A stretch of 13,371 nucleotides of DNA from the UHGV virus genome UHGV-0090146, one strand, 5' to 3'. The position numbers were made by a program, and so were the translations under genes. Positions 4,807 through 13,371 of this stretch are shown one piece after another (the first letter of the stretch is position 1; each line of letters starts with the position of its first letter). The notes beneath the pieces were generated by a model. The model was not told the DNA's origin and ran no database searches. It saw only the letters and a program-made list of their open reading frames with translations. The stretch comes from a virus.

Positions 4807-5847
4807 TTAAAATCCTTCAATTGGAGTTGGTTTATGTTCGATTTTCGCTTCTTCCTGCGGTTCTGGCTGCTGTGGTTGCGGTTTAGCCAGTTTGGCAGGG
4901 TTGAAATTATCCTGCGGAGTTATTACCACAGGAGATAATTGCTCATCATTGATGAAAGACTCAATGCGATCGTATTCTGCAGCAGAAGCAGCCAGAGAAG
5001 GCCAGATTGCGCGAATCTTATCTTTCAGGTTATCAGGTATTGATTTTGCTTCTTCCTTCAAGCCTTCCATGCCTTTTGCGGCGGAAAGCTGAAGTCGTGA
5101 GCGCCATGACTCAAATTCTTCGTCAACTTTAACGCCAGAGTCCACCCATTTGATGAGTCCGCGACCGTGAGCCTCTCCAATATACCCATGACGAACGCTT
5201 TCACGACCAGATTCAAAGAAGATTGGGCGTAGCTCTTCTGGTAATTTGGTAAACTCCTGAATTTTGCCCCCATCGTGCATCATCATGCTCACGGTCATTT
5301 CGAACATGAAGTCTTTCTCGCACACTGGCTGCAACCCCAGCGATACAGGCTCCTTCGGATTTGCGAAGTCAGTTTTCTGGCGAGCACGAAGACATACGAT
5401 GATATGCATATTGCTTTGCAGCATAGCATTCATGAACTTCTTGTGTTCAGCTTTGGCACGCTTCCAGTCAGCCATTTTTTTTCCGTTAAGCAGAGGCTTT
5501 TCAGCAATCTCAGTGCAACTTCCTTCTCCTTCCCATTCGTGCGAGCCAGAATCAATAACAAGGACCTTAACGCCAGCAGCCTGAAACTCTTCAATGGCCT
5601 GACGGTAGCGAGCCGGGCTGAATGGAGCATACATATCAGCGTGCAGGAATTTACCATCAAGGATGTTTGAATACAGACGACCGCGACCGTTTTCAGTATC
5701 AAGGAATCCGATTTCTTCTGGTGAGTCAACCATCCCGCGAGCCAGCTTAAGTGCGCTATATGTTTTTCCGCTACCAGACTGACCGGAAATACCGATGACC
5801 ACGCGAGAACCTGAACGCTCTGCTGGTTTAATATTGAGAATACCCAT
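4807..5847 (-). CDS. RecA-fold / AAA_24 (Sak4-like) ATPase, probable recombination mediator
   Basis: Walker A GISGQSGSGKT near the N-terminus and Walker-B-like KVLVIDSGS. Pro/Gln-rich C-terminal tail. ORF extends to 5856 (GTG), but ATG at 5847 has the best spacing to a GAGGTG RBS. Stop lies 3 nt before the ssb start. Confidence 0.6.
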   Translation of the reverse strand: MGILNIKPAERSGSRVVIGISGQSGSGKTYSALKLARGMVDSPEEIGFLDTENGRGRLYSNILDGKFLHADMYAPFSPARYRQAIEEFQAAGVKVLVIDSGSHEWEGEGSCTEIAEKPLLNGKKMADWKRAKAEHKKFMNAMLQSNMHIIVCLRARQKTDFANPKEPVSLGLQPVCEKDFMFEMTVSMMMHDGGKIQEFTKLPEELRPIFFESGRESVRHGYIGEAHGRGLIKWVDSGVKVDEEFESWRSRLQLSAAKGMEGLKEEAKSIPDNLKDKIRAIWPSLAASAAEYDRIESFINDEQLSPVVITPQDNFNPAKLAKPQPQQPEPQEEAKIEHKPTPIEGF

Positions 5848-5864
5848 TTGCATCACCTCACTAA

Positions 5865-7284: not shown

Positions 7285-9196
7285 TTTGTTCTCCTGTGAA
7301 ATCTTTTCTGTGGATTATATCTCGACCTTTATCATTAATACGATGCGTGATGCGTTTTGGCGCTTTAATCAACCCTGCATACATCATGAACTGTTTGGCG
7401 TTCTGGCATTTCAGGATTTTCCCAGCTATTGATTTATCATCAAGGTGAGGAAAGACCGCCTTTGCCTTGAACATGTTTTTCATGTGAGTTGCGCCGCCAT
7501 AAGGGTAGAAAACTTCATTAGCCCAGCCTTCTTTGCCATCACAACGGTTAATCCAGTAGCGATATAAAATTCCCTCTCCGTCCTTCGTCAACTGGACTTT
7601 GAAGTCCATAACATCAGCCCATTCGTTGTCGGTATACGCGCGTTCATTCAGTGCCGCATTCGGGTCGCGCAAAACATGATCGCAATGTCGACAATAACGC
7701 GCCGTTGGGTCGTTTTTAGTGCCGCAACCATCATCAAAAATGCGTATTCCGTGCTTATCGAAGCCGCAACGAATGTAACTGAAAAACTCCTCGCAACGAC
7801 CATCTGGCGATAGTGGGTCTTTTCCTATGCAGCGGCGCGCATATGGGCTGTTCATTGTTCCACATGTGTGACACGGAACTTGTTCGCCACTGCGTTTTGA
7901 ACGTTGTGCTTCGGCTTCTTCAAGAATTGGGTCTTCATATAGCTGACCAAGCTCAAACATCGTTCCTGAGAAATCAAGAACCAGATGGTCTTCTTTATGA
8001 TACCCGGCATCAATTTGTTCTTTCTTCAGCAGGCGCATTCCGCGGCCAAGCAACTGAACAAGAAGGGTGAGTGACATTATTTTTCGTAATATGCAGCTCG
8101 TATCCCATAACGGTATATTTACGCCAGTTGTAAGTGCGGCTATCTGGAATGTGAATTTTTTGCGCCCGGTGTATGCATCTTTTAGAGCCTTCCTTCTGGC
8201 TTTTGACCCCATATCTTCTGTAACTATTGAATAACTCCCTTCTGGTAGGTATTTTGCCGCCTCCTGACAATGTTTTTTACCAGCACATGTAATCAGTACG
8301 CCGTTTCTGTTTTTAGTCAACTCCATAACCTTGAGCATGATTTTCTGCGTCAACGTACCTTGCTCAAGAATTTCTTTTTGCATCTGCTTGAGCTGCTCGG
8401 AGGTAAAGTCCTGAGTGCCATCAACATCTGAACCATGAAAATCTGAAAGGTCATAATGCAGACTATCAACATCATGAAGACCAAAAATTGTTGGCACAAG
8501 AAAACCGTTTTCAACCATGTATTTGGTGTCTATGTTGATAATCTCCTTCTTCCAGAAAGCGCCTTTTATTGATGTAGTTCCGCGAAACGGTGAGCCTGTA
8601 TAACCTATTATTCTCAACTCATGGCCGTGCTTATCTTTGCACCTTTTCATTAGCTCATTAATTATCACTGCATACTGCGTATCACCATTATTAACAACAT
8701 CAATGTCATTAACCATATGATTTTCATCGATAAGCAGGAATCTTGGGCAAAAGTCAGAGAGCGCACCTTTTGCAATAACATTCCCTGACTCATCCTTTTT
8801 ATCAAACAAAGCATTTATAACAGTACCCTCAGAACCACAGATTATTGGATAAGTAGAACTTTTCCTACCCAACGAAGCACTGAATAGCGAGTTTCTAACA
8901 CCAAGTGACCATAGCTCTTCCGCATCTTGCTCCACTATTTCGCCCTGTCTTGATAAAATCATCCCTGAATAGCCCATTTCCTGAAAACGTTTTGCTATCA
9001 TGGCAATCATCAGGGACTTTCCACTACCGACACTTGCTGTTACATAGCTTGGTCCAACATAATGTCGTATCACATCACCTGTTAACTTATATATCAACCA
9101 CTGATATGGTCTTGGCTCGATATCACCAGTATCCAAGCAAGATTTCAGCAAGTTAATGTCAATCTCTGAAATCATTTTGTCTATTTTATGCGTCAT
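7271..9196 (-). CDS. SF2 (DEAD/DExH-box) DNA helicase with Cys-rich C-terminal zinc-ribbon region
   Basis: 641 aa with Walker A TASVGSGKS, DExH-like LLIDENH and an arginine-finger-like LLGRGMR. Cys cluster CHTCG...RRC...GRC...RCG...DDGCG...YCRHCDH follows. ATG at 9194-9196. Confidence 0.85.
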   Translation of the reverse strand: MTHKIDKMISEIDINLLKSCLDTGDIEPRPYQWLIYKLTGDVIRHYVGPSYVTASVGSGKSLMIAMIAKRFQEMGYSGMILSRQGEIVEQDAEELWSLGVRNSLFSASLGRKSSTYPIICGSEGTVINALFDKKDESGNVIAKGALSDFCPRFLLIDENHMVNDIDVVNNGDTQYAVIINELMKRCKDKHGHELRIIGYTGSPFRGTTSIKGAFWKKEIINIDTKYMVENGFLVPTIFGLHDVDSLHYDLSDFHGSDVDGTQDFTSEQLKQMQKEILEQGTLTQKIMLKVMELTKNRNGVLITCAGKKHCQEAAKYLPEGSYSIVTEDMGSKARRKALKDAYTGRKKFTFQIAALTTGVNIPLWDTSCILRKIMSLTLLVQLLGRGMRLLKKEQIDAGYHKEDHLVLDFSGTMFELGQLYEDPILEEAEAQRSKRSGEQVPCHTCGTMNSPYARRCIGKDPLSPDGRCEEFFSYIRCGFDKHGIRIFDDGCGTKNDPTARYCRHCDHVLRDPNAALNERAYTDNEWADVMDFKVQLTKDGEGILYRYWINRCDGKEGWANEVFYPYGGATHMKNMFKAKAVFPHLDDKSIAGKILKCQNAKQFMMYAGLIKAPKRITHRINDKGRDIIHRKDFTGEQSEAA

Positions 9197-9271: not shown

Positions 9272-10225
9272 ATGAGATACGACTGGAAGGACATTGAACC
9301 AAAAATGCTCGGAAATTGGCAAGCTGCCATCATGTCTATCGTCAATGTGGATAGCAGAGTTTTCAATGGCAAGCACCAGCCATGCCCGTCATGCCTTGGC
9401 AAAGACAGGTATCGTTTTGATGATAACTTCGAAACAAAAGGCGATGGCGGAGCAATCTGCAACCAGTGTGGTTCCGGAAGCGGAATGAACTGGCTGATGA
9501 GACTATCCGGAATGAGCTTTCCTGAAGCACTGGAGGCGCTGGGAGGATTCCTGAACATGCACCCTCGCGAAAAGCTGGAGGCAATCAGGAAGGAACTACC
9601 GAAGATAAATCACAACGATGACTTCATCACCGAGCAGGAAGTCGCCGCGATCATGGCTAAAACGACTTGTGTCGCGATGAGTGAGTGGACGCTGATAAAT
9701 GGTATTGGTTGCGACATTAACGTCGTCAGAGGTAAATCCAGAGAGCTTATTGCGGTTGAGATGATGCGCTCTGACACAATGAAGCCATGCAACGTGGCAT
9801 TCATTGGCATGGGTGGTGATTCATTCAAAACTTTTTTCCGCGCAGGATACAACAAGTACTCAGCCATCAACGGTAAACTCACGCGCGGCGCGATAAGCCC
9901 AATCGGAGAAGATAACGGAAAGTTCATTTACCTGGTATCTGATTATGCAGATGCGTGGAAATGCCATTACTTCACTGGTGCGCATGTCTGGTGCTGCTGG
10001 TCGCCGGAAAACATGTGGGAAGTGGTGCGCTCTGTTAGCGATGAGGTGAAAGCGAGGTTGCGCTGCATAGTTAATTATAAATTCGACGAGCTGTGCGCCG
10101 CAGAGAATGCAGGCCTTCCGGTGATGCTTCCTGATGATGCTGACACTATCAGGATGGCAAAGAGAATCATGAGAAAGATTTATGACGCTGGCGAGTTGAT
10201 AGAAAAAATGTCAGTCAGCAGATAA
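9272..10225 (+). CDS. DNA primase (N-terminal zinc-ribbon; Toprim-like core inferred)
   Basis: Zinc-binding signature CPSCLGKDRYRFDD...GGAICNQCGSGSGMNWL, typical of phage/plasmid primase N-termini. AAGGG RBS 7 nt before ATG 9272. The track ORF begins at 9209 but would overlap the helicase start and candidate promoter. Confidence 0.65.
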   Translation: MRYDWKDIEPKMLGNWQAAIMSIVNVDSRVFNGKHQPCPSCLGKDRYRFDDNFETKGDGGAICNQCGSGSGMNWLMRLSGMSFPEALEALGGFLNMHPREKLEAIRKELPKINHNDDFITEQEVAAIMAKTTCVAMSEWTLINGIGCDINVVRGKSRELIAVEMMRSDTMKPCNVAFIGMGGDSFKTFFRAGYNKYSAINGKLTRGAISPIGEDNGKFIYLVSDYADAWKCHYFTGAHVWCCWSPENMWEVVRSVSDEVKARLRCIVNYKFDELCAAENAGLPVMLPDDADTIRMAKRIMRKIYDAGELIEKMSVSR

Positions 10226-10228
10226 AGG

Positions 10229-10253
10229 AAACCCTCCGATTGGAGGGTTTTTG
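10229..10253. terminator. Bidirectional rho-independent terminator between convergent primase and minus-strand operon
   Basis: Hairpin CCCTCC-GATT-GGAGGG (10232-10247) flanked by AAA on one side and TTTTT on the other. Confidence 0.75.
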
Positions 10254-10670
10254 TTATTCATTGAACTCTGGCGCTTGAGTCCAGAAGGCTACATTTCGCA
10301 GCGACTTACCCGTGTGATTGCACCAGTATATTCCTGAGTCATCATACTTGGCAGTAACCTTGACTCGATCAGCATCAATAATAACAACCTCCTGCCCATC
10401 ATTAGGGTCGAAAAGACGCGCATCTTTCCAGTTAGCAATCTCATTAAGGGAAAGAAGCACATAACCGGGAAGATAAGCTTCGACATCAGCGATGTGAACT
10501 ATTGTTCGCTCCGCTCTCTCTCCTGTGTAGTCTCCATTCCACTCATAAAGAATAATCGTGTCTCCAACCTTAAAATCACGATCGTTCTTTCTTAGCTCCG
10601 CCTTCTTGTGTCCGGTAACTACAGGCCAGAAGTGTTCAGGTAAGATTTTTAGTTCGTGTTTTTTGCTCAT
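10254..10670 (-). CDS. ASCH / DUF3850-like (PUA-fold) domain protein with C-terminal extension
   Basis: N-terminal MSKKHELKILPEHFWPVVTGHKKAELRKNDRDFKVGDTIILYEW fits the DUF3850/ASCH pattern as recalled. ATG at 10668-10670 has GAGGA 8 nt upstream and lies 1 nt from the stop of the upstream 65-aa gene. The in-frame extension to 10700 is less likely. Confidence 0.6.
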   Translation of the reverse strand: MSKKHELKILPEHFWPVVTGHKKAELRKNDRDFKVGDTIILYEWNGDYTGERAERTIVHIADVEAYLPGYVLLSLNEIANWKDARLFDPNDGQEVVIIDADRVKVTAKYDDSGIYWCNHTGKSLRNVAFWTQAPEFNE

Positions 10671-10671
10671 T

Positions 10672-10869
10672 TCAAACATCCTCATAACACCAATATGCAA
10701 CGCAAATTATTTCAACCAAATCATTTGATGATAAAAATTTATTACCATCATAAATTGCGTGAATTCTTTCACCATCAACAGTTAATGCCATAACATTTCT
10801 TCCTATCTGCGGACGCCAGAGATAGCAATCAAACCATTCAACATCATACCAATCATCTTCTGGACTCAT
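10672..10869 (-). CDS. Hypothetical protein (65 aa), translationally coupled
   Basis: ATG overlaps the stop of the 491-aa gene (ATGA) and is preceded by GAGGT. Its stop lies 1 nt before the ASCH gene start. No recognisable motif. Confidence 0.55.
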   Translation of the reverse strand: MSPEDDWYDVEWFDCYLWRPQIGRNVMALTVDGERIHAIYDGNKFLSSNDLVEIICVAYWCYEDV

Positions 10870-12341
10870 TTCAACCTCGGATTTATGTGCACAGTGTTTC
10901 CGATAAATACGCAGTAACCATCCTCTTCAAGTGATGGCAATACACTTGACCTGAGGCGGTCGTAAATTTTAGGTATTCCTTTGAATGGCCTAACATTTTT
11001 AAGTGAATCATAAAGCCACTTTACCGTTACGTTTGTTTTTCCTTTCTGAGCGGCAGAGCGTAGCTTTTCGGCAACAACATCAAATTCAGAACGCTCGCCA
11101 GCATATCCATTTGATTCCACGGCGTCGGTGAATGTTTTTGTCAGTGCGTCATAAACGCTGATAGCGCGACTAATTTCATTTTCACAGATAATTTTTGACC
11201 TCTTTCCTCCATCACACCAGTTTTCAGCAGCGTGAAATATTGCTGCCAGGCGGATTATTTGCTTATCAGCTTTACCCATTGCACCACGAAGAAGAACATG
11301 GTCCCACTTACCGCCTGGAAGGAAGTTTTTCTCCCACTGGTTTCGCAACATGCCGATCATTCTTGCTGAATCATTGTGAAGAGTCAGTCTTGTTTTTTCT
11401 GCTGACACAACATTATGTATAAATCTTGCATATTCCGACCTCAAGCTGTCTGGCATTGGCTTGCTTACAGGGCAGTCATTAACCATGTCCCAGTGTTCGC
11501 GATAGCCAAGCATTGATTGCTCGCGCAACATCAGGAAACGTTCAGAAAGACCGTTCCCCCTGTCGCCAGCGGCAAGAATGGCATCAATACTTTCATCCTG
11601 CGCAATCACACTTATGTTTCCAAGCACGTAACCAGATGAAACGCCACGACCAACACGAGCAGAGCCAATGAATCCTCCATCCCAGCCCTTCAGGATGACT
11701 TCGGCGTTTGCCTTTCCACCTTCTTTTCCGTAAGAGAGGCCAAGGCATGTGTTAAGGACGCTTGCCTCGTCACTTATCAGGTTAAAAAACCCACCTTCAT
11801 GGATGGCCTGATGCTGAACAGCCTCCGGCGTTGCGTCCGTCAGTGGATATGTAATCGTATAAAGCTCTTCCAGCTTCTCCTTTTCCCGAGCAATATCATC
11901 GCCGATTAGTGCCTTTGCATTCTGATTACTGGCCTCTTTATATGCCTTCATCAACTCTTCAATGCGAAGATTTATTTTTATGATCTGCTTTTCCATCTTT
12001 TTGGAAAGATTGTCATATTCAATCTTCACCGGATTCATGTGCATTGAGTTGATGGCGGTTTTCCCTGCTGATGGAGGCTGAGAAGTAACCACGTAAAGAG
12101 AAACTGGAAGTTCTGAATGGTAATACTCAACGCTAAAGTTTCTCGTCATTGCGCTGGCAACGCACCCAAGCAAATGCATGAACGATGTATTTATTGGGAA
12201 CTGAACGGCACGAGCTGCAGCGATTGCATAACGAGACAGCAAATCAGTCCGGTGCTCACTGGTAAGTTCTGTTTCTGAGTACGTTACATCACGCTCCTTA
12301 CCTTCCTTGATGTCAAGCCACATATTTGAGCTTGGTGTCAT
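10866..12341 (-). CDS. Hypothetical protein (491 aa) with degenerate P-loop NTPase-like motifs; possible DUF3987-like replication-associated protein
   Basis: Long ORF with SQPPSAGKTA (GKT, P-loop-like) and, about 90 aa later, FNLISDEAS (hydrophobic stretch plus DE, Walker-B-like). No canonical SD before ATG 12341 and an alternative Met at 12323, so the start is uncertain. Family assignment is from memory only. Confidence 0.8.
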   Translation of the reverse strand: MTPSSNMWLDIKEGKERDVTYSETELTSEHRTDLLSRYAIAAARAVQFPINTSFMHLLGCVASAMTRNFSVEYYHSELPVSLYVVTSQPPSAGKTAINSMHMNPVKIEYDNLSKKMEKQIIKINLRIEELMKAYKEASNQNAKALIGDDIAREKEKLEELYTITYPLTDATPEAVQHQAIHEGGFFNLISDEASVLNTCLGLSYGKEGGKANAEVILKGWDGGFIGSARVGRGVSSGYVLGNISVIAQDESIDAILAAGDRGNGLSERFLMLREQSMLGYREHWDMVNDCPVSKPMPDSLRSEYARFIHNVVSAEKTRLTLHNDSARMIGMLRNQWEKNFLPGGKWDHVLLRGAMGKADKQIIRLAAIFHAAENWCDGGKRSKIICENEISRAISVYDALTKTFTDAVESNGYAGERSEFDVVAEKLRSAAQKGKTNVTVKWLYDSLKNVRPFKGIPKIYDRLRSSVLPSLEEDGYCVFIGNTVHINPRLK

Positions 12342-12414
12342 GATGGAAGGCGACGCGAGCAGGAGATACTTTTAATTCCCTTGCTTCGTTGAAGATGTCT
12401 TGAGCTGTAATCAT
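12313..12414 (-). CDS. Possible small ORF (33 aa, MITAQDIFNEARELKVSPARVAFHHDTKLKYVA)
   Basis: ATG at 12412-12414 preceded by AAGGG with 7-nt spacer. It overlaps the stop of the upstream small ORF (TGATG) and the 5' end of the 491-aa gene. Too short to validate by sequence alone. Confidence 0.25.
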   Translation of the reverse strand: MITAQDIFNEARELKVSPARVAFHHDTKLKYVA

Positions 12415-12614
12415 CACTGAACCCTTAAAATTGTTAATTCGCATGTGTCCCTGTTGTATTTTGTCCAGTACACAAAGTCGCTTTTCTTCGAAATTTTGGA
12501 CAGGCACATCCTGAAAATAAGCACCTCAACACCTATCGCCTTAAGATTTATAATCTTTTTCTCGTCAACCCTCATTCTTGAGACTATATCGCGAACTCGT
12601 TTCATGTTTGACAT
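12414..12614 (-). CDS. Possible small ORF (66 aa from MSNMKRVRDIV...)
   Basis: Sits directly downstream of a strong minus-strand promoter candidate. Weak RBS. Basic protein with no recognisable domain. Confidence 0.3.
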   Translation of the reverse strand: MSNMKRVRDIVSRMRVDEKKIINLKAIGVEVLIFRMCLSKISKKSDFVYWTKYNRDTCELTILRVQ

Positions 12615-12650
12615 TTTTACCGCCAACCGTGGTTAATCATGGTGTGAAAG

Positions 12651-12679
12651 ATTATATAAAGATATAAACGAAATGGCAA
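12651..12679 (-). promoter_or_regulatory. Sigma70-like promoter for the minus-strand operon
   Basis: On the minus strand: TTGCCA (plus 12674-12679), exact 17-nt spacer, perfect TATAAT (plus 12651-12656). About 30-40 nt upstream of the first minus-strand ORF. Confidence 0.55.
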
Positions 12680-12740
12680 CCATATCATTCTTGGCGTGGT
12701 TTAAGCGACTAAATGGTTATCTGTGGGTAACGTGGGTAAG

Positions 12741-12767
12741 GCGTGGGGCAACCAACCTTCCCCACGA
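12741..12767. repeat. 27-bp repeat copy 1 (GCGTGGGGCAACCAACCTTCCCCACGA), internally palindromic
   Basis: Identical to the copy at 12929-12955. Contains inverted arms CGTGGGG / CCCCACG separated by 11 nt. Confidence 0.85.
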
Positions 12768-12928
12768 AGTTTTCCTATAAGTATATGTAATATAATAAAA
12801 TTATTATTATTTGGGTTAATGGGTACAAATGGATTATTTGAATATATTTATAAGGGGATGGGTATGAAATCTTCCCCTTTTTACCCACGAAAAATAAAAA
12901 CATTCAAATCAATTATTTACGATGAAAA

Positions 12929-12955
12929 GCGTGGGGCAACCAACCTTCCCCACGA
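12929..12955. repeat. 27-bp repeat copy 2 (identical to 12741-12767)
   Basis: Exact 27/27 match to copy 1, 188 bp away, in the same orientation. Confidence 0.85.
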
Positions 12956-13008
12956 CCTGCCCCACGGGCAAAAATTTACCCCACGAGCACGTTTTTAACG
13001 CATTCCTG

Positions 13009-13037
13009 TTGACGTGGAATCATAGCTGATGTAGATT
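13009..13037 (+). promoter_or_regulatory. Sigma70-like promoter for the rightward small-gene operon
   Basis: TTGACG (13009-13014), 17-nt spacer, TAGATT (13032-13037). GAGGGTGAAGAG RBS and ATG at 13068 lie about 30 nt downstream. Confidence 0.5.
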
Positions 13038-13067
13038 GAACTCATCGAAACAAACGAGGGTGAAGAG

Positions 13068-13214
13068 ATGAAAATCAAAGACCGTGAAGAATTTGAAGAT
13101 GCACAGGCTATGGCTCGCATTGCAGTTGAACGCACAAACAACAGCATTCCAGCAGATGCATTCTGGAACGCTGCAATGCAGGCATTAATCTCAGCGTATG
13201 GGTTAAGCAAATGA
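13068..13214 (+). CDS. Hypothetical small protein (48 aa, MKIKDREEFEDAQAMARIAVERTNN...)
   Basis: Not in the ORF track because it is short. RBS GAGGGTG upstream. Its stop overlaps the next ATG (ATGA). Confidence 0.45.
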   Translation: MKIKDREEFEDAQAMARIAVERTNNSIPADAFWNAAMQALISAYGLSK

Positions 13215-13306
13215 CAGGCGCATCATTTGAACTTATCGCCAGTCTGGTTATCGTGGCATTCATCATTATCGCAGTGGCAGTTTCTAAATCAGGATATAAG
13301 GAGTAA
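13211..13306 (+). CDS. Hypothetical small membrane peptide (31 aa, single predicted TM helix)
   Basis: MTGASFELIASLVIVAFIIIAVAVSKSGYKE has a hydrophobic core flanked by charged residues. ATGA overlap with the upstream gene. The downstream AAGGAG serves the next gene. Confidence 0.35.
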   Translation: MTGASFELIASLVIVAFIIIAVAVSKSGYKE

Positions 13307-13309
13307 TAA

Positions 13310-13371
13310 ATGGCAAAGACTATCTATCGTCGCGAAAAACTGGAACAAGAACTCGGTCACGTTGGCGCGCA
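13310..13371 (+). CDS. Hypothetical protein, 5' end only (MAKTIYRREKLEQELGHVGA...)
   Basis: ATG at 13310 preceded by AAGGAG at optimal spacing. ORF runs off the window end. Confidence 0.5.
   Translation, partial: MAKTIYRREKLEQELGHVGA

Follow-up and report, generated by a model that had tools for sequence, protein, structure and literature searches.

General features of the locus

The sequence analysed here (the window) is a stretch of 13,371 nucleotides (nt) from the virus genome UHGV-0090146, and our subject is a chain of tightly packed minus-strand open reading frames (ORFs) in its right part, between positions 12,626 and 10,254. The features of the locus are summarized in Table 1. Read in the direction of transcription, the chain consists of gp66, two ORFs of 33 and 491 aa that fall within a single helicase gene of the DUF3987 family, gp65, and a 138-aa protein of the ASCH/DUF3850 family. 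The ORFs and their junctions are as an earlier annotation made from the letters alone (the sequence-only reading) had described them: the TGA at 12416-12414 shares its A with the ATG at 12414-12412 (TGATG), an ATGA lies at 10869-10866, and gp65 is separated from the ASCH gene by a 1-nt gap at 10671. Shine-Dalgarno sequences precede ATG 12414 (AAGGG, at 7 nt) and the starts at 10869 (GAGG, at 5 nt) and 10670 (GAGGA, at 8 nt). The mechanical start of gp66 is TTG 12626; ATG 12614 is the likelier one, because homologues begin MSNMK. The small ORFs gp66, gp65 and ASCH are real genes, as dN/dS against the relatives is mostly 0.15-0.56 and the AF2 models of gp66 and gp65 reach a pLDDT of 95 and 85.

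Table 1. Features of the locus and their coordinates in the window
Feature	Position	Strand	Description and basis
DnaG-type primase gene, convergent	9272..10225	+	Zn ribbon; PF08273 7.7e-12; phrog_510 'DNA primase' 3.7e-80; DNA primase in the Akira annotation
Bidirectional intrinsic terminator, common to the operon and the convergent primase gene	10227..10252	both	GC-rich hairpin, 11 bp (+) / 9 bp (-), T tracts on each strand
ASCH protein, ORF	10670..10254	-	138 aa
C-terminal extension of ASCH protein	10257..10436	-	aa 79-138; gp65-like beta domain; hhalign homology to gp65
ASCH/DUF3850 domain	10437..10670	-	aa 1-78 of 138; PF12961, ASCH profile, 3IUW
GxKxxExR motif	10590-10613	-	G20-H-K22-K-A-E25-L-R27; alignment of 14 homologs
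gp65	10672..10869	-	65 aa; very acidic (pI 4.05, net charge -9), all-beta; AF2 model, charge calculation
DUF3987 (SF6/AAA+) replicative helicase gene	10866..12414	-	517 aa with 5 nt restored; as written, 491-aa ORF 12341..10866
SERF motif	11526-11549	-	motif alignment
Walker B	11760-11780	-	LISDEAS, aa 188-194; motif alignment
Walker A	12057-12080	-	QPPSAGKT, aa 88-95; motif alignment
33-aa 'ORF'	12313..12414	-	helicase codons 1-25 (MITAQDIFNEARELKVSPARVAFHH) and 8 out-of-frame codons; alignment with Akira, Bas79, Vi II-E1
Assembly junction	12341..12343	-	TCA in the window, TCATGGCA in relatives; 5-nt shortfall gives a frameshift
gp66	12414..12614	-	66 aa; basic (pI 10.0), winged-helix-like; AF2 model, charge calculation
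Sigma-70-type promoter, predicted	12651..12679	-	TTGCCA-17-TATAAT; 11/12 consensus matches; best site within 9900-13371

The predicted promoter lies about 35 nt upstream of ATG 12614, and the terminator hairpin has folding energies of -16.5 and -14.5 kcal/mol. Since these two elements bracket the chain, it constitutes one transcription unit, in which the promoter would drive gp66, the helicase gene, gp65 and the ASCH gene, and transcription would stop at the shared terminator. Rfam and tRNA scans returned no matches.

Taken as a whole, the window shows about 90% identity to K1-type and Jersey-like siphophages, the best match among 50,697 phage genomes compared. Identity rises to 94-95%, both in the 2.5 kb around the chain and over 10200-12414, in Escherichia phage EcoIv28_Lewi, Salmonella phage Akira (NC_054647), Shigella phage DS8 and Salmonella phage Vi II-E1. 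The annotated order in the homologous stretch of Akira is single-stranded DNA-binding protein (SSB), annealing protein, exonuclease VIII, SNF2-like helicase and then, on the opposite strand, DNA primase; beyond the primase follow an RNA-binding protein (DUF3850), a hypothetical protein (DUF551), a DNA helicase and an AP2-domain protein. Scans of the window ORFs against PHROG and Pfam agree with this picture, and the chain therefore sits within the replication/recombination module of a known phage group. Akira resembles the window in the order of its DUF3987 'DNA helicase', 65-aa protein, DUF3850 'RNA-binding protein', terminator and convergent primase; it differs in having an AP2-domain protein in place of gp66 and an intact helicase of 517 aa.

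We put at roughly 80% the probability that the region is an early replication operon, read leftward, in a virulent enterobacterial siphophage of the Akira/Jersey-like kind, with a replicative helicase of known type and swappable small accessory genes on both sides of it. The region is ordinary and not a new functional module: its components all come from known families, or from orphan families already present in annotated RefSeq phages, and their arrangement is already annotated in Akira.

The DUF3987 helicase

The largest protein of the chain matches PF13148 at residues 51-402 with 121.7 bits (cut-off 27; E 5.4e-35) and phrog_2373, 'DNA helicase', at 6.7e-186 over profile positions 35-513 of 515; its residues 409-490 match a separate PHROG, phrog_7327 (8.5e-12). 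The NTPase motifs, described in the sequence-only reading as degenerate, are not. The Lys of Walker A (SAGKT), the Glu of Walker B (SDEA) and the SER motif are invariant in six homologs with identities as low as 26% (range 26-40%), among which Walker A varies at its first Gly and Walker B at its Asp. Homologs of the helicase occur in 1163 phage records, including those of T1-like Drexlerviridae and Webervirus.

Proteins of the DUF3987 family are divergent SF6 (MCM-like) replicative helicases of phages, usually linked to a DnaG- or AEP-type primase and carrying a winged helix-turn-helix at the C-terminus (Kazlauskas et al., PMC4889955). One of them, the PriCT-DUF3987 protein AgaPH, is an oligomeric, ATP/dATP-dependent 5'->3' helicase that is inactive when mutated in Walker A or in Walker B (PMC11724360). 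The window protein is like AgaPH, the mycobacteriophage Corndog helicase and N4 dns in Pfam family, Walker A and B motifs and association with a primase gene, and by analogy would share the C-terminal winged-helix region reported for the family. It is unlike these relatives in having neither a PriCT nor an AEP fusion; its primase is of DnaG type and encoded by a separate, convergent gene, from which it is separated only by accessory genes and the terminator. Such a primase is the partner that would be expected for a helicase of this family. Very probably, the large protein is the core replicative helicase and works with the convergent primase. As a hexameric AAA+/SF6 enzyme it would unwind the phage DNA with ATP, its partners being the primase, the SNF2-like helicase, the exonuclease, the annealing protein and SSB. 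The earlier description of the chain as made of unknown-function genes holds for gp66 and gp65, which are orphans; it does not hold for the large protein, which comes from a biochemically characterised helicase family and lies in a replication module.

Exchange of accessory genes around the helicase

The locus was compared in 26 distinct relatives (29 IMG/VR loci and three fetched records, with overlaps among them; individual loci carry L numbers below). The helicase is present in all 26, while the genes upstream and downstream of it assort independently. The upstream slot holds an AP2-domain protein in 15 relatives, a 72-77 aa protein in nine and a gp66 homologue in two. The downstream slot holds at least six gene families in ten different combinations. 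The window shares its own pair, gp65 and the 138-aa ASCH protein (ASCH138), with Akira and L006; three loci have gp65 and a 28-aa ASCH remnant, and five have a 77-aa DUF3850 protein alone. Unlike the window, DS8 carries ASCH138 without the 65-aa gene, and Vi II-E1 has a 63-aa protein, an 83-aa protein and, of DUF3850, only a 51-aa remnant. Further combinations are the 63-aa protein, alone or followed by an 87-aa DUF3850 protein; the 63-aa protein and then a phrog_625 protein, either directly or after an intervening 85-87 aa protein; phrog_625 by itself; and a 99-aa phrog_839 protein. In total, DUF3850 is intact in nine relatives and a remnant of 28-51 aa in four, phrog_625 is found in six, and seven have neither. 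The gp65 gene is present in five, and the downstream sets that accompany gp66 are of three kinds. In nearly every case the start of the first downstream gene is an ATGA overlapping the stop of the helicase gene. Around helicases of this family in T1-like phages, the neighbour genes differ again.

Remnants of DUF3850 (28-51 aa) are found in L003/L013 (Vi II-E1), L004, L010 and L012, where the window has the full 138-aa gene. The ASCH gene has therefore been truncated repeatedly, in phages that are otherwise intact. A comparison of Jerseyvirus genomes reports an ASCH gene in one phage that is absent from its closest relatives (PMC11803447). Both gp65 and the ASCH protein are dispensable for the growth of isolated phages: DS8 is viable with no 65-aa gene, and Vi II-E1 with no intact ASCH gene.

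The comparison shows that the flanking accessory cassettes are exchanged exactly at the start and stop codons of the helicase gene; the stop/start overlaps would let any inserted gene ride on helicase translation. On this reading the gp65 protein and the ASCH-gp65-like protein are dispensable early accessory factors. In Akira/Jersey-like phages the exchange of small early genes by recombination is sharply bounded by the start and stop codons of a core replication gene, as this locus illustrates.

This pattern bears on the claim of the sequence-only reading that the overlaps imply co-translation at fixed stoichiometry, which we do not uphold. The other same-strand junctions in the window measure 3, 8, 25 and -14 nt; tight spacing is normal here, and the overlaps are therefore no special evidence for a stoichiometric complex. 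Members of such a complex should also occur together. They do the opposite in the relatives, because the helicase is constant while gp65, intact DUF3850 and gp66 come and go (5/26, 9/26 and 2/26, respectively). What stands of the view that the chain is one unit beside an early promoter is that its genes are tightly packed and probably translationally coupled; it is not a fixed module, as the flanking genes are swapped independently.

The split helicase reading frame

As written, the window has CCATCATGAC near the start of the helicase gene. All relatives have CCATCATGGCATGAC there, both those in an alignment with the window (Akira, Bas79 and Vi II-E1) and the 26 distinct ones of the census. 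All 26 relatives have an intact helicase of 517-518 aa, which starts M(M)ITAQ[DE]IF at an ATG equivalent to that at 12414. The 491-aa ORF begins at Met27 of the helicase, and the match to phrog_2373 from position 35 onward fits a missing N-terminus. Even T1-like homologs of 36-40% identity conserve the N-terminal segment that is lost here (SPxRV).

Three public contigs were found by looking up the exact sequence of the ASCH protein; all come from human-gut metagenome assemblies, and their names suggest the same or related read sets. The ENA scaffold L039, which begins at the last base of the window, equals the window over 6.1 kb except at the junction, where it reads GCCTTCCA-N16-TGACACC. Contigs L040 and L041 match the window at 100% identity, and their first bases, GACACC and TGACACC, place their ends at the junction. 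As the frameshift is unique to the window among the 26 relatives and coincides with the N16 gap and the contig ends, an artefact is favoured: the division of the helicase into ORFs of 33 and 491 aa is probably an assembly or gap-closure error, and the natural gene would be a single 517-aa ORF from ATG 12414. The 33-aa ORF is not a gene. Of the five linked ORFs counted in the sequence-only reading, the overlaps are real, and the 33-aa member is a by-product of the junction, made of the first 25 helicase codons. With this correction, a frameshifted helicase and a spurious ORF no longer pass as a mysterious module of five genes, and a problem of the assembly at base level is marked at 12341-12343.

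A genuine frameshift is unlikely. It would be a 5-nt slippage deletion, giving either a re-initiated, N-terminally truncated 491-aa helicase or a defective variant in the population. An in-frame restart ATG does exist, and the two 2.8-kb contigs that end at 12341-12343 suggest strain heterogeneity at this point in the sample. However, that ATG (12341) straddles the junction and has no Shine-Dalgarno sequence, and the upstream frame terminates 29 nt beyond it. The exact 491-aa product was found nowhere on record by exact-sequence look-up, the lost segment is conserved across the helicase family, none of the 26 relatives has the change, and the sole public scaffold of identical sequence has Ns exactly at the site. 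A programmed frameshift or a real truncation of the helicase was also considered and judged unlikely, the change being unique to the window and falling on the N16 gap and contig ends.

L040 and L041 both cover exactly window positions 12340 to about 9540 (2.8 kb), that is, the helicase body, gp65, the ASCH gene and part of the primase gene. The extent of the two contigs suggests that the 2.8-kb segment is common to strains that occur together in the sample and differ on either side of it; the segment may be a recombination unit.

The small accessory proteins

Two members of the chain, gp66 and gp65, have no match in Pfam, PHROG or NCBIfam, in agreement with the sequence-only reading, which had counted two members with no recognisable domain. 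The AF2 model of gp66 (pLDDT 95.2) contains H3-11, E19-23, H24-27, H31-45, E49-54 and E59-64; this topology, H-b-H-H-b-b, corresponds to the H1-b1-H2-H3-b2-wing-b3 of a winged helix. Its matches in BFVD are uncharacterised phage proteins of 69-93 aa (TM 0.81-0.91, E down to 2e-6). A Foldseek search of the model against PDB gave no significant match (best E 0.14), and the non-significant ones include winged-helix domains of Stn1, UFL1, SSV1 F-112 and SlyA. The family is rare, with only six homologous protein clusters and one phage record (Klebsiella phage MK54). On the strength of the model and the charge, gp66 probably binds nucleic acid, an assignment of low confidence; it is possibly a regulator or an origin- or helicase-associated factor. 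The three alternates upstream of the helicase, namely the 66-aa winged-helix-like protein, an 82-90 aa AP2-domain protein and the 72-77 aa protein, are unrelated, and the stop codon of each overlaps or abuts the helicase ATG (TGATG, or TAAATG/TAGATG). Comparison of gp66 with the 72-77 aa alternative by hhalign gave no informative result, the alignments being shallow and made of partial sequences.

The last member of the chain is an ASCH/DUF3850 protein, as had been proposed. It matches PF12961 with 71.5 bits (cut-off 22.9; 6.8e-20), PF04266 (ASCH) with 24.2 bits (cut-off 21.2; 5.6e-5) and, at aa 5-75, the solved DUF3850 structure PDB 3IUW (3e-10); judged by these profile matches, its fold is a PUA-like beta-barrel. 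K22, E25 and R27 of its GxKxxExR motif, a motif reportedly defined by Iyer et al. in 2006, are invariant in 14 aligned homologs. The domain is like others of the DUF3850/ASCH superfamily (3IUW of E. faecalis, E. coli YqfB, ZmASCH and human TRIP4) in being PUA-like, about 75 aa long and equipped with the motif; YqfB has a Thr at the Glu position. The literature we found holds no demonstrated activity or function for DUF3850 proteins. Our best guess, at low confidence, is that the ASCH domain binds RNA, single-stranded DNA or a modified nucleoside.

The window protein departs from the superfamily in its additional C-terminal beta domain of 60 aa, which is otherwise found only in three protein clusters (P0014-P0016); most DUF3850 proteins are 77-93 aa long and lack it. 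This extension aligns with gp65 by hhalign at 93% probability (E 2.7e-7, 51 columns). Going by this alignment, gp65 is a free-standing copy of the domain at the C-terminus of the ASCH protein, which is a small new observation. The homology of the two implies a local duplication or fusion event. The AF2 model of gp65 (pLDDT 84.6) has four beta strands; against PDB it gave nothing significant, only non-significant matches to Tudor, Hfq and SH3-like folds. The family is narrow, and a deep profile search added only four small relatives. WD40 and InlB B-repeat matches in that search were rejected as spurious repeat-protein matches. The acidic gp65-type domain may be a protein-interaction module, again a best guess of low confidence drawn from its model and charge.

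RefSeq labels the Akira orthologue of gp65 as DUF551. Like DUF551, known from YfdS of E. coli CPS-53 and from the Stx-phage Ea22 variant 2, gp65 is a portable domain of about 65 aa in the early region of an enterobacterial phage, and pieces of motif align between them (P..G..V...DGE and N[VI]..W...P). However, the Pfam model of DUF551 (PF04448) gave no match at E<=10 to gp65, 15 relatives or the ASCH C-terminal segment, and so misses 16/16 members of the gp65 family; the model is itself weak, as YfdS scores 22.2 bits against a cut-off of 22. An hhalign comparison with YfdS was not significant (probability about 1%), although the aligned fragments were the expected motifs; sequences collected for a broader DUF551 profile were only YfdS copies of 97-100% identity.

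In six relatives (L002, L005, L009, L011, L016 and L025), DUF3850 is replaced by phrog_625 proteins of 93-101 aa. Their N-terminus, M-A-x-LQLAVKGEYFDAMxRGxKxEEYR, fits the ASCH GxKxxExR motif too, and phrog_625 may represent a second family of ASCH-like proteins that occupies this slot. The relationship is not established: hhalign gave a probability of 8% with an alignment at the level of the motif, and no match was found in Pfam, NCBIfam or PDB profiles.

DUF3850 genes occur beside replication genes in other elements. They lie in the nin region after O and DnaB in lambdoid prophages, directly after the replisome organiser and a G39P-type loader in a Clostridium prophage, after FtsK and Rep_trans in a Bacillus integrative and conjugative element (ICE), and, in another phage, among a group of small genes close to SSB and a methylase. 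These contexts fit two readings equally: DUF3850 may accompany early replication regions as an accessory gene, or it may be loosely linked to replication in function. Like the window, the lambdoid nin region has, right behind its replicative helicase gene, a variable set of small genes that are closely packed and often overlap; DUF3850 genes are among them. In contrast, the block in the window comprises 0-3 genes and ends at a primase-facing terminator, and it belongs to a virulent group, outside any antitermination context. The gp65 homology of the ASCH C-terminus and the recurrence of ASCH-type genes in the post-helicase slot offer leads for tests of DUF3850 function.

Alternative interpretations

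Several points weigh against reading the region as an ordinary replication operon with exchangeable accessory genes. We infer helicase activity from one characterised family member and from comparative genomics. The predicted folds of gp66 and gp65 come from AF2 models of shallow alignments with no significant match to a solved structure. Intact ASCH-type genes stand directly after a replication protein in several unrelated elements, which could reflect a real link with replication. Lastly, the 5-nt difference at the junction can be drawn as a deletion between direct CATG repeats, a classic slippage context that would favour a genuine frameshift.

Among the alternatives for the accessory genes, the one that fares best would make gp65 and the ASCH-gp65-like protein, independently of the helicase, anti-defence or host-modulating factors. 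They might, for example, bind or hydrolyse a nucleic-acid-derived immune signal or a modified nucleoside, or the acidic beta domain might inhibit a host protein. PUA-like and ASCH folds recognise modified bases or act on N4-acylcytosines, as YqfB does. The acidic charge of gp65 and the presence of DUF551-type portable domains in λ/Stx Ea22 variants and YfdS would be in keeping with this idea, as would the presence/absence polymorphism and gene decay among near-identical phages, seen in our census of 26 relatives and in the published comparison (PMC11803447). We consider it unlikely nonetheless: no homology to any characterised anti-defence protein was found for the two, and the slot also carries unrelated small genes, so that position is weak evidence.

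It is more doubtful still that the ASCH protein, perhaps with gp65, is an accessory of the replisome tied to the helicase, which might bind RNA primers, RNA-DNA hybrids or single-stranded DNA at the fork. The ASCH domain of human ASC-1/TRIP4 partners with the ASCC3 helicase. DUF3850 directly follows a replicative helicase, helicase loader or Rep in this phage group, lambdoid prophages, the Clostridium prophage and the Bacillus ICE, and the helicase stop nearly always overlaps the next start. Against this, seven of the 26 relatives have no ASCH-like gene and four only remnants, and the T1-like phages that share the helicase family have other neighbours. A broader version of the idea, to which we give just as little credence, holds that the helicase-coupled slot is selected to hold an ASCH-type nucleic-acid-binding protein, DUF3850 possibly alternating with phrog_625, and that the ASCH domain here has in addition captured a copy of the gp65 domain. 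If true, this would be a previously unrecognised helicase-linked ASCH system that protects replicating phage DNA or RNA primers, or neutralises nucleic-acid-based host defence.

Variable early-gene slots are typical homes of anti-defence genes. That the whole chain is one co-translated, fixed-stoichiometry, multi-protein module for counter-defence or host takeover is nevertheless very improbable, even with stop/start overlaps at all junctions, an adjoining early promoter region, two orphan members, a gp65 as strongly acidic as many inhibitor or mimic proteins, and the speculation by the authors of a ParB-CTPase survey that ParB-DUF3850 fusions serve in anti-defence: only the helicase is constant, each of the other members having been exchanged, lost or degraded on its own, the largest protein is a helicase of core replication, one of the supposed members is an artefact, spacing is comparably tight throughout the window, and PADLOC gave no match for the four proteins at E<=0.01, which is only weak evidence since its library models bacterial defence systems and does not screen anti-defence genes.

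Other features of the window

Upstream of the promoter lies an iteron-like cluster (12723-12987, both strands), in which 8 of the 11 CGTGGG[GT] sites of the window fall within 255 bp; 1.4 such sites are expected in the whole window. The cluster includes two copies of the 27-bp palindrome CGTGGGGCAACCAACCTTCCCCACG, at 12741-12767 and 12929-12955; the stretch enclosed by them is AT-rich and lies between divergent promoters. In the clade with an approximately 99% identical helicase the cluster is conserved, whatever the upstream cassette, and the 87%-identity clade mostly lacks it; in the Vi II-E1 record the region is annotated as repeats. We regard the cluster as a candidate origin of replication or operator, to which the C-terminal domain of the helicase perhaps binds.

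The mechanical ORF of the primase starts at TTG 9209 (338 aa); the likelier start is ATG 9272, from which the product has 317 aa, as in the Akira annotation. Vi II-E1 (L003, 1924-2928) and DS8 (L008) have a gene for an HNH endonuclease of about 335-358 aa between the SNF2-like helicase and the primase. The window lacks it, positions 9196 and 9209 being nearly adjacent. At 4807-5856 (minus strand) the window has a 349-aa recombination gene of the phrog_1366/Sak4-like type, where Akira has an Erf-like annealing protein and a 97-aa ORF; this is a further cassette swap inside the module. The right end of the window (13371) coincides with the end of the public 19.2-kb scaffold L039, and is therefore a contig end and not a biological boundary.

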